64,000 nucleotides of DNA from Promethearchaeota archaeon (GTDB lineage: Archaea > Asgardarchaeota > Lokiarchaeia > Sigyniarchaeales > SOKP01), in the NCBI GenBank assembly GCA_048939995.1, contig JBHLOY010000010.1, forward strand, positions 32,001 to 96,000. Direction: 5' to 3'. The position numbers were made by a program, and so were the translations under genes. The notes beneath the pieces are model-generated. The model saw nothing but the letters and a program-made list of their open reading frames with translations. It had not been told where the DNA came from and searched no databases. Position 1 is the stretch's first letter; each line of letters begins with the position of its first letter. Shown here one piece after another: positions 48,842 through 52,191 of the stretch.

Positions 48842-50020
48842 TTGAATGATTTCAAAATTGAAGATTCAATTATTTTGATTGATACTTCTAGATCGATGTT
48901 AAGAAGAGACTTTAAACCAAATCGATTAATTGCAGCCTTGAGTGCCGTAAAGGCTTTTATCCAATCAAAATTTGAAATTGACCCCAAAGATAGAATAGCA
49001 CTTGTATCCTTTGGAGAGAGTGCCAAAAAGTTATGTCCTATTACTTATGAAGAGGATAACCTATTTGAAGCTTTCAAGAAGATCCAAATTTCTGGTAAAG
49101 GGTTATTACATGAAGGTATAGCATTTTGTTTGCAACTGTTAGTTGAGGAAATGAGAAAAGTAGGAGGAAAAACCAACAGAATTTTTATAGTTTCAGATAA
49201 TAAGATTCTTTATACTGAAAAATTGCATAAAATTGTGGAGATTGCCAAAGGTTTAGGAATTTATATAGATTCCTGCCAATTAGGGCAATCTGAAGGATAT
49301 TCAGGAAGTATTCTTAAACAGATTGCTAAAAACACTGGAGGTCAATACGGTTTTTTTAATAATTCTAAAGCATTAATTAATGCCGGAAATTCATTTGCTT
49401 CAAAAAAAGAGTTTAAAGAGTCAATCGATTATTTTTCACCTATAAAAGATAAAAAAGAAACTCCATTAATGGGTGAAATTGCTTTGGATTTACGAAGGCC
49501 TAATCTCTTAGATATTCGTTTAATGATGAGTGATAATGACAAATTTGGTGAAAAGTGTCAGATCTGCCATTCTGTAAAATCACCTATTACTGATGCTGAT
49601 TTTTACTCTGAAGGAAGATATTGTCCTTCATGTGATCGCCCAATGCATTTATCATGTGCAGCAATGTGGGCAAAAAAAACTGAAAAGAAGGAGCGGATCT
49701 TTAGATGTCCCTTTTGCTTTTTTCTTTTAGAATTACCCTCTTCATTTTCAAAATTAATTGAAGATAAAGAAGAAAGTCTTCCTAAAGTAAGATTAGTTAA
49801 TGAAGGAGAAGAAAAAACAACAAAAATGATTGTCTTTCCCAATGAAAATATCCATGAAATTAATGAATCATGTTCCTATTGTCACAGCATATTTTTAGGA
49901 GAATATAAAGTTTATCAATGCGAAAAATGTGGAGCTTATTATCATGAACCTTGTTTAGAAAAAGTCACAAAGGAACTCAGGGGATGTAGGAACTGTGGCG
50001 CTCAAATTATTAACTATTAA
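48842..50020 (+). CDS. VWA domain + two RING-like zinc fingers (TFIIH p44/Ssl1- or Rpn10-like)
   Basis: IDTSRSMLRRDFKPNRL VWA start; CQIC...CPSC...HLSC...W...CPFC; CSYC...CEKC...HEPC...CRNC. Confidence 0.8.
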   Translation: MNDFKIEDSIILIDTSRSMLRRDFKPNRLIAALSAVKAFIQSKFEIDPKDRIALVSFGESAKKLCPITYEEDNLFEAFKKIQISGKGLLHEGIAFCLQLLVEEMRKVGGKTNRIFIVSDNKILYTEKLHKIVEIAKGLGIYIDSCQLGQSEGYSGSILKQIAKNTGGQYGFFNNSKALINAGNSFASKKEFKESIDYFSPIKDKKETPLMGEIALDLRRPNLLDIRLMMSDNDKFGEKCQICHSVKSPITDADFYSEGRYCPSCDRPMHLSCAAMWAKKTEKKERIFRCPFCFFLLELPSSFSKLIEDKEESLPKVRLVNEGEEKTTKMIVFPNENIHEINESCSYCHSIFLGEYKVYQCEKCGAYYHEPCLEKVTKELRGCRNCGAQIINY

Positions 50021-50101: not shown

Positions 50102-52191
50102 GTGATTAATTTAAGCAAAGCTCATAAACATAAGTGGATCATTACTAGTGCTTGGCCTTATGTGAACGCAAATATTTCTTGAGAGCTTTAAGAATTAGCG
50201 TACTTCCACATCTAGGCAACTTAATAGGAAGCACATTATCAGCAGATGTATTTGCTCGCTTTCTACGAATGAAGGGAGATGAAGTATTATTTGTATCTGG
50301 TTCAGATATGCATGGAACTCCCGTAGCAGTGGAAGCTAAAAAAACAGGTGTTTCAGTAGAAGAATTAGCTATAAAAAATCACAATAAAATTAAGGAATTG
50401 CATAAAAAATGGAAAATTTCATTTGATAATTACACTCAAACGCATAATCCTACACATATCGAATTTGTGCAGAAATTTTATTTAGATATCCAAAAAAACG
50501 GATATATCTTAGAAAAAGATATAGAATCCCTTTATTGTGAAAAAGATAACCTTTTTCTTCCTGATAGGTTTGTAGAGGGGATTTGCCCTCACTGTGGAGC
50601 TGAGAAAGCGAGAGGGGATCAATGTGACAATTGCCAGAAGTTATTGACACCTCTCGAGCTTAAAGAATCGTACTGTTCGATATGTGGCGCAAAACCTATA
50701 CTTCGAAAAACTAAACATTGGTATATGGATTTTCCTAGGCTTCAAAATCAATTGAAGAAATTAATTGAAAAAAATGAAATTATCCCTCAAAATGCTCGGC
50801 AAATGTGCTTAAACAGTATCGAGGAAGGTCTTCCTGAAAGAGCCATTACGCGAGATTTAGAATGGGGTATTCCCGCACCGTTTAAAGGAGCTGAAGGAAA
50901 AACGATATATGTATGGTTTGAGGCTGTGTTAGGTTATGTTAGTGCTTGTTTAGAATGGGCTGACAAGCTAAAAAATCAACCAAAAAAATTTGATTACTTT
51001 TGGAAAGATAAAAATACCAAATCGGTTTATTTTATAGGGAAGGATAATATCATCTTCCATTTAATTGTGTTTCCAGGACTCCTAATGGCATATAATGCCG
51101 ATAAAAAGGATTCTGATAAATTAGTTCTTCCATATAACGTCTCTTCTACAGAATGGTTAATGCATGAAAATGAGAAATTTTCAAAATCTAGAGGAATAGG
51201 GATTTGGATTGATGAGGCGTTAGACCTGGCACCATTGGATTATTGGAGATTCAATTTAGTTTATAATCGTCCGGAATCAAGTGATACCTCATTTTTATGG
51301 TCTGAATTTGAAAATAACATTAAGACTTTAAATGATAACATAGGAAATTTCATTCATAGGACATTAACCTTTATTGATAAACAATTCAATAAGATCATTC
51401 CAGAGAAAGTTGAATATGACAAAGTAGATAAGATTTTTGTTGAAAAAATCAATAGAATAGGCGTTGATGTCGGAAAAAGCTTAGATAATTTTAGTTTACG
51501 TAAGGCAATACGAGATGTTGTGAGTTTTGGAAAAGAAGGAAATGTTTATTTAAACGAAAAGGCACCATGGCATTTAATAAAGAAAGATAAAAAAAAAGCG
51601 GGACATGTATTTAATATATGCGCTCAAGCGGTATATGCTTTGGCAGTTCTTTTAAGCCCATTTACTCCTGGGACAGCAAACAAAATTATTTCATTTTTGA
51701 ATGATCCTAAATTATCCGAATCATCTTGGGATAGTATTAATGAAAATGCTGTCAGTGCAGGAGTTAAAATTAAAAGTCCAGAGCCAATTTTTCAAAAATT
51801 AGATATTGAAGAAATAAAGAATAATTTAAATAAAATCAGAGAAGAAAAGCAAAAGGGAGGAAAAATTGAATTGATATCTTATGATTATTTTAAAAAGTTG
51901 GATATTAGAGTCGCAAAAATAGAATCTATTGAGAAGGTACCTAAAGCAGATAAACTATATAAATTAGGAATCGATATTGGGAATGAGAAAAGGACACTCG
52001 TAGCAGGTTTAGCGGAACACTATAAAATAGATGAGCTAATTAATAAAAAAATTATAGTGCTAACAAACTTAGAGCCAAGAAAATTACGAGGAATTCAAAG
52101 TGAAGGAATGCTGCTTGCTGCTGTGGATAATGAAAAGGTATCTATTTTAATACCAGACAAAGAAATTGAGATCGGGGCAAAAGTAGAATAA
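50102..52191 (+). CDS. metG: Methionyl-tRNA synthetase, two exons: 50102-50171 and 50204-52191 (685 aa after splicing)
   Basis: Exon 1 gives [23 protein letters not shown]; exon 2 gives (I)PHLGNLIGS, Zn knuckles, KFSKS and a C-terminal Trbp111-like domain. Confidence 0.95.
50172..50203 (+). other. 32-nt bulge-helix-bulge (tRNA-endonuclease-type) intron in metG mRNA
   Basis: Central 4-bp helix ACGC(50166-69)/GCGT(50198-201), 3-nt bulges AAA and ACT, flanking helices on both sides. Standard cut sites restore the reading frame. Confidence 0.88.

Follow-up and report, generated by a model that had tools for sequence, protein, structure and literature searches.

A predicted tRNA-type intron in the methionyl-tRNA synthetase mRNA of an Asgard archaeon

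Methionyl-tRNA synthetase (MetRS) is encoded by metG, and in the genome of the Promethearchaeota archaeon studied here (G000; 3.75 Mb in 38 contigs, 98% complete, 30.5% GC) this gene raises the question of how its protein can be made. In the 64,000-nucleotide stretch of contig JBHLOY010000010.1 that we analysed (the window), the unspliced message read from the GTG at 50102 ends at the TGA at 50180 after 26 codons. The stop (50180-50182) is carried in frame by a frame-shifting segment of 32 nt that lies two residues ahead of the HIGH-type motif HLGN. Comparison of sequences made it very likely that this segment is a tRNA-type (bulge-helix-bulge, BHB) intron, and that the metG mRNA is cut by the splicing endonuclease EndA and rejoined by RtcB to give full-length MetRS.

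The interrupted gene and its predicted fold

Excision of 50172-50203 yielded a stop-free 685-codon MetRS containing VNAIPHLGN, with a spacing equal to that of 43 intronless genes (Table 1). Exon 1 encodes the first conserved stretch of the MetRS catalytic domain and was aligned, via an intronless congener, to the N-terminus of the solved MetRS structures 1rqg and 5gl7; its GTG start is in the same place in both sister species (G010 and G019). Exon 2 gave Pfam matches to PF09334, PF19303 and PF01588. A single metG was found in this 98%-complete genome and one each in the two sister species, and the other G000 matches proved to be class I synthetases of other kinds or an isolated tRNA-binding domain. 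The metG gene adjoins a vWA/Ssl1-like gene and a gene of unknown kind. The former lies directly upstream (48842-50020, + strand) and carries C-terminal zinc fingers, an architecture that resembles TFIIH p44/Ssl1; wherever the flank retrieved from an intron-bearing relative was long enough, this gene again preceded metG.

Table 1. Parts of metG in the window, and inserts in four other genes of the same genome (G000, contig:positions)
Feature	Position	Strand	Description
metG exon 1	50102..50171	+	70 nt; GTG start (predicted) to first base of Ile codon
Gene-finder ORF	50152..52191	+	TTG start, 679 aa; −1 frame through intron, without exon 1
Exon-exon helix, 5′ strand	50155..50165	+	10 pairs, the same in every related sequence with the intron
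Central 4-bp helix, exon strand ACGC	50166..50169	+	invariant across 7 related sequences
5′ bulge AAA	50170..50172	+	predicted cut 50171/50172; AGA in sister species
metG intron (predicted)	50172..50203	+	32 nt, phase 1, within Ile codon
Intron hairpin	50173..50197	+	arms 50173-50183 and 50187-50197, loop AGC 50184-50186; stop TGA 50180-50182 inside
Central 4-bp helix, intron strand GCGT	50198..50201	+	GTGA or ACGT in sister species, 3/4 pairs
3′ bulge ACT	50202..50204	+	predicted cut 50203/50204
metG exon 2	50204..52191	+	HLGN motif, remaining catalytic domain, zinc knuckle, anticodon-binding and C-terminal tRNA-binding domains
Exon-exon helix, 3′ strand	50205..50217	+	codons for Ile-Pro-His-Leu-Gly
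EF-1alpha insert	C11:167345-167313	−	33 nt, in P-loop; predicted cut restores GHIDHGKST
purA insert	C7:109926-109897	−	30 nt; predicted cut restores WGDEGKGK
fwdA insert	C17:377452-377423	−	30 nt, 10-bp stem
CoA-transferase insert	C38:64707-64737	+	31 nt, canonical BHB geometry

The predicted structure has a central helix of four Watson–Crick pairs (ACGC with GCGT), 3-nt bulges on opposite strands, and two flanking helices, the exon helix with 10 pairs and the intron stem with 10 of 11 positions paired (one U.U, two G.U, AGC loop). RNAfold returned central helix, intron stem and exon helix together as the minimum-energy fold (−17.4 kcal/mol), an energy that was itself unremarkable (z −1.8; 11 of 200 shuffles equally good). 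When the insert was shuffled 200,000 times between the real exons, the 4-bp central helix arose in 0.6% of cases and the central helix plus 10/11 stem pairs in none. The feature of the metG insert that goes beyond chance is its register, not its fold energy.

Our first-pass annotation of this DNA had described the bulges and helices, and had proposed that the EndA rule, cleavage after the second base of each bulge (PMC2738675), removes exactly the 32 nt to give VNAIPHLGN; both were confirmed, the former base for base. It had also pointed to the consensus MetRS spacing. That spacing is indeed restored, but taken by itself it fixes the cut site weakly, because any 32-nt removal starting between 50162 and 50181 reopens the frame. 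The residue at the junction narrows the site: the canonical cut gives Ile, which occurs in 41 of 108 intact homologues, whereas the neighbouring registers give Leu (0/108) or Asn (1/108). Across the interrupted genes described below the residue left by the canonical cut is Ile in this species, Val in the sisters and Ile in a second genus, all of which are found in intact homologues, and the intronless congener G016 carries the exact predicted 5′ junction, GTGAACGCA-ATTCC. A central helix with opposed bulges, flanking helices and a canonical cut that restores the intronless form, as in archaeal BHB introns, are all present in the metG insert. From the established cut rule (PMC2738675) we infer cleavage and ligation of the metG RNA. 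The local fold of the transcript would place the 4-bp helix, with a 3-nt bulge at either end, between the exon helix and the intron hairpin; a two-subunit EndA would cut after the second base of both bulges, and RtcB would ligate the exons into a message encoding full-length MetRS. Because only one metG was found, methionine charging would depend on this splicing. A search of short proteins, which is a weak test, returned no fragment from this clade spanning the junction.

Conservation, distribution and origin of the metG inserts

The identical 32 nt were present in three other assemblies, one from NCBI and two from independent sequencing runs (L160-L162). DNA of this species was seen in SRR30758830, SRR30758833 and SRR24270828. 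A strain of the same species, 99.7% identical (L163), differed at two positions of the insert, one change repairing the U.U mismatch and the other turning an A-U pair into G.U. We found a 32-nt insert at the same site in G019, G010, L156, L158 and L159. The genes with the insert form one clade (100/99), which comprises five or more lineages at species level whose proteins are 83-91% identical to one another, and the insert was absent from the other 27 congeners read. Within the clade dN/dS was 0.069-0.081, compared with 0.047-0.118 in intronless pairs, and metG had no other lesion. Between G019 and L159 the insert was identical at 32/32 positions against 65% at four-fold silent sites; in other pairs 22-25 of the 32 were identical against about 50%. 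The changes fell mostly in the loop and bulges, or kept the pairing. These data indicated that the gene and the insert are both under selection and that metG is not a pseudogene. The insert appears more conserved than structure alone seems to need, and for that reason a regulatory role was considered; we regard such a role as unlikely.

Pairing was retained in 95% of structure cells across the six distinct intron sequences, with four one-sided G.U changes. An alignment of metG across the class had been suggested as a check on presence or absence and on compensatory change: it gave a distribution, with 6 of 139 evaluable genomes interrupted, but no two-sided compensatory change at any base pair across the six distinct sequences, so that covariation was not demonstrated. 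The motif first described as canonical is so in this species and relaxed in its sister species, where three of the four central pairs form. Around the junction, over a stretch chosen after the fact and among kin that are not independent, 10/11 and 9/12 codons were identical at silent sites in the two intron-bearing clades; the rest of the gene gave 49% and 35%, and three trios without the intron gave 10/31. Near-frozen silent sites in intron-bearing clades only are what would be expected if the exon-exon helix were under selection.

Our survey of the class covered 161 genomes, of which 140 had a metG match and 139 could be evaluated at the site. Three of the six interrupted genomes belong to the 32-nt clade. 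The other three (G194, G195 and G197), from another genus, carry an unrelated insert of 31 nt with a perfect TGCG/CGCA central helix; its predicted cut lies one base later, after the second base of the Ile codon, with Ile in all three, and two of the three have an imperfect stem and are without the adjacent exon pair. Among the intronless genes each intron group stands as a clade (100/100), and the AU test rejected the tree in which the two are united (p=4.4e-5). Two separate gains of a metG intron are therefore likely, this being the simplest reading because sequence, length, phase and ancestry all differ; a single ancient gain followed by sliding and many precise losses is less likely. The 32-nt intron would have entered metG a single time, in the ancestor of a small group of species in the genus whose members inherited it, and the second, unrelated one would have been gained one base further on in another genus.

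Pattern scans, which reach WP-type metG with inserts of 9-39 nt, returned only the five relatives as real cases among all species genomes; the matches in Thermoproteus, Pyrodictiaceae and alphaproteobacterial metG came from an upstream look-alike of the pattern, with no insert. In JGI metagenomes the eight matches were chance matches or intact genes, none of them an interrupted metG. Three side observations were made in the survey. Nine genomes (loci L052-L060; G049, G043, G053, G059, G199, G041, G039, G198 and G200) are without the usual Loki-type metG match and have a distant protein of 637-680 aa instead (30-38% identity), perhaps a replaced MetRS type. Six catalytic-domain matches (G250, G237, G231, G242, G046 and G042) are 18 nt longer through an in-frame insertion without a stop. 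One match (L047, G264:C148) has a single in-frame TAA at about codon 70 without an insertion, which a sequencing error or a point mutation probably explains.

We then asked where such inserts come from. No donor of the insert was found elsewhere in G000, where the best match (23/32) equalled shuffles, or in viral contigs. A self-splicing group I or group II intron was rejected, as the insert has 32 nt only and no Rfam covariance model matched over it. A homing (mobile) archaeal intron was rejected likewise: there is no room for an ORF, the neighbours are the two genes described above, and no match to PF00961 (LAGLIDADG_1) was found in G000 or G019. Two insertions at one conserved motif would suit a homing nuclease that has since been lost, and survival and detection bias would explain them equally well. 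We also rejected a pre-formed hairpin at the empty site, as intronless genes on average fold no better at the junction than recoded controls (mean z −0.16, versus −2.4 for intron-bearing genes). The exon helix looks to have been selected after the gain, or to be a rare precondition for it. One intronless metG (L029, in G027) is an exception with a strong empty-site hairpin (z −5.5 against recoded controls), which may mark either a lost intron or a site primed for one.

Alternatives to splicing of the metG mRNA

We considered four other explanations, none of which retained more than a very small share of our confidence. In one, the unspliced mRNA is translated by a programmed −1 frameshift or a translational bypass, with the hairpin as recoding signal. 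In this window the −1 frame does run open from one end of the insert to the other, and the stop codon sits in the hairpin as it does in known bypass elements, those of phage T4 gene 60 and the mitochondrial byps, which are short hairpin inserts with a stop in an essential gene. Yet in all sister species, and in the 99.7%-identical strain of the same species, the −1 frame meets a TAA at the start of the insert, and a frameshift would add up to 11 residues beside the ATP-binding motif. Bypass elements need matching take-off and landing codons, whereas the metG insert has no matching pair at the 32-nt distance. The 31-nt insert of the second genus would require a shift in the opposite direction, and a hop there would place Lys in two species at a position where Lys occurs in 0 of 108 homologues. 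Recoding is thus highly improbable.

We gave equally little weight to removal of the RNA by another nuclease and ligase or by template switching, or to excision from the DNA in some members of the population. Several relatives have relaxed BHB motifs, and the role of the enzyme in this organism is read from sequence. Against this, the two unrelated metG inserts and four inserts in other genes all obey the rule of cutting after the second bulge base, and no intronless allele of this clade was seen among the 120 best full-length homologues.

Still less credible is the database annotation, in which translation begins inside or just before the insert and MetRS lacks exon 1. A TTG at 50152 does open a frame of 679 aa, and such proteins stand in databases, but the product would be without the conserved ITSAWPY stretch with which the catalytic domain opens in MetRS of solved structure, all the interrupted species conserve exon 1, and the starts chosen by gene callers differ between relatives (640-679 aa); the 679-aa ORF is a mis-annotation. 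The public MetRS records P0001-P0006, P0010 and P0121-P0124 have intron-derived or truncated N-termini in this length range, and databases hold truncated or wrong N-termini for the MetRS of this clade.

A pseudogene or an assembly artefact, the working MetRS gene having been left out of the bin, can be dismissed with near certainty: the genome is metagenome-assembled and 98% complete, and a few relatives do carry a different, distant MetRS type instead, but the insert is identical in three other assemblies and persists between lineages whose silent sites are about 50% identical, dN/dS is 0.07-0.08 with no other lesion, and no second copy was found in the three genomes searched. An artefact and a second intact metG had been named at the outset as outcomes that would overturn splicing, and neither was found. 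Splicing of the metG mRNA, and the dependence of the gene on it, was instead supported by the conserved insert, by intronless relatives that match the spliced product, by the second independent insert, and by intact genes for EndA and RtcB.

Splicing enzymes, further interrupted genes and relation to known introns

G000 encodes two EndA paralogues of 208 aa, near C3:124,000 and C28:98,400, and an intact RtcB of 492 aa. Among solved structures the Aeropyrum pernix EndA was closest to the catalytic subunit, which keeps the equivalents of the catalytic triad Y125, H133 and K164 (Tyr149, His157 and Lys188 in G000 numbering, by alignment to the Aeropyrum enzyme), of R157 and W183, and of K44 in the crenarchaeal specificity loop (Lys66). 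The equivalents of all six residues were present in the EndA alpha subunit of 6/6 interrupted genomes, and a second paralogue in 5/6. In the Aeropyrum enzyme the specificity loop confers cleavage of relaxed motifs (PMC3241643), which fits the imperfect helices in relatives; their BHBs would need such relaxed recognition, which is plausible for an enzyme of this type. ARAGORN called only 20 tRNA genes in G000, many with introns at odd positions and none for tRNA-Met, a low count that probably reflects under-calling of multiply interrupted tRNAs.

The metG gene is one of at least five in G000 with inserts of this form. In the genes for EF-1alpha, PurA, FwdA and a CoA-transferase, each insert combines a 4/4 central helix with a pair of 3-nt bulges; it contains an in-frame stop, and its canonical removal restores an open frame (Table 1). 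EF-1alpha is intronless in five relatives (G021, G016, G194 and both metG-intron sisters, G019 and G010), and its insert is probably a recent gain. The purA insert is common to four congeners, with a variable loop (L164-L167), and is shared with G019, G010 and G021. As one insert is absent from relatives and the other shared, the introns differ in age. Three further candidates of 29, 38 and 30 nt were noted at C7:27864-27892, C21:21570-21607 and C7:20329-20358 (all + strand), where canonical removal joins two coding stretches. A genome scan for BHB motifs, also proposed earlier, brought mixed returns. The four inserts above are canonical, but unguided scans did not separate signal from noise: an ab initio scan of G000 gave 65 frame-restoring candidates against 45-55 in shifted controls, and a relaxed one 82 against 70-90. 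For this reason we count motif-anchored cases only and give no genome-wide number.

In the searchable literature, outside which most subscription papers lie, endonuclease splicing within an archaeal coding sequence is described for cbf5 only, and predictions in further archaeal genes are mentioned, unconfirmed. The same literature held nothing on introns in metG or in Asgard mRNAs, in keeping with the initial impression that no case in an aminoacyl-tRNA synthetase or an Asgard mRNA was on record. The cbf5 pre-mRNA intron occurs in Desulfurococcales and Sulfolobales (Watanabe 2002; Yokobori 2009, PMC2738675). Like it, the metG insert is a short non-coding BHB intron (33-39 nt in the quoted cbf5 examples) at a functionally critical coding site, with a cut between the second and third bulge bases, a two-subunit EndA and frequent mis-annotation. 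They differ in phylum and in host gene, metG encoding an essential aminoacyl-tRNA synthetase, and the metG intron works alike without being a member of the cbf5 family by descent. The cbf5 intron represents one old gain with later losses, whereas metG shows two recent-looking gains at adjacent bases and, unlike cbf5, is one of several such genes in its genome. Splicing was demonstrated by cDNA for cbf5 and is predicted here for metG.

In Haloferax volcanii, HVO_1309 has a 46-nt BHB intron in its 5′ UTR (Schwarz 2020, PMC7714728). Here too the splicing endonuclease has an mRNA as its substrate, which was cleaved in vitro, and the intron was observed in circular form, but this intron lies outside the reading frame, whereas the MetRS protein could not be made without removal of the metG intron. 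Asgard tRNA introns share phylum, motif and enzyme with the metG intron; they were gained repeatedly and independently, and Asgard EndA mostly consists of two paralogues (bioRxiv 10.64898/2026.10.13.758758). That study covers tRNA genes only, and neither 'mRNA' nor 'cbf5' appears in its text. The metG intron cannot be optional, because the gene is essential and single-copy. The IRE1-dependent introns of eukaryotic HAC1 and XBP1 are also short, frame-shifting mRNA introns removed by a protein nuclease, with a tRNA ligase sealing the exons. Their splicing has been named spliceosome-independent (PMC13149111), but it is regulated by stress and uses another nuclease and another RNA motif, so the likeness is an analogy only.

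The metG mRNA intron would thus be new in its host gene and as an Asgard mRNA case, the BHB kind of intron being already known. We lean towards the broader view that G000 and its relatives harbour a shifting set of mRNA mini-introns that are spliced by proteins and have repeatedly been acquired at conserved motifs in core genes. With two gains one base apart, metG provides a natural experiment on how such introns arrive and at which sites. If this view is true, MetRS and EF-1alpha, and hence translation, would depend on EndA and RtcB acting on mRNA, and splicing of mRNA without a spliceosome or a ribozyme would occur among the prokaryotes most closely related to eukaryotes. The metG case is also relevant to whether protein genes were already interrupted on the archaeal side before the origin of eukaryotes.
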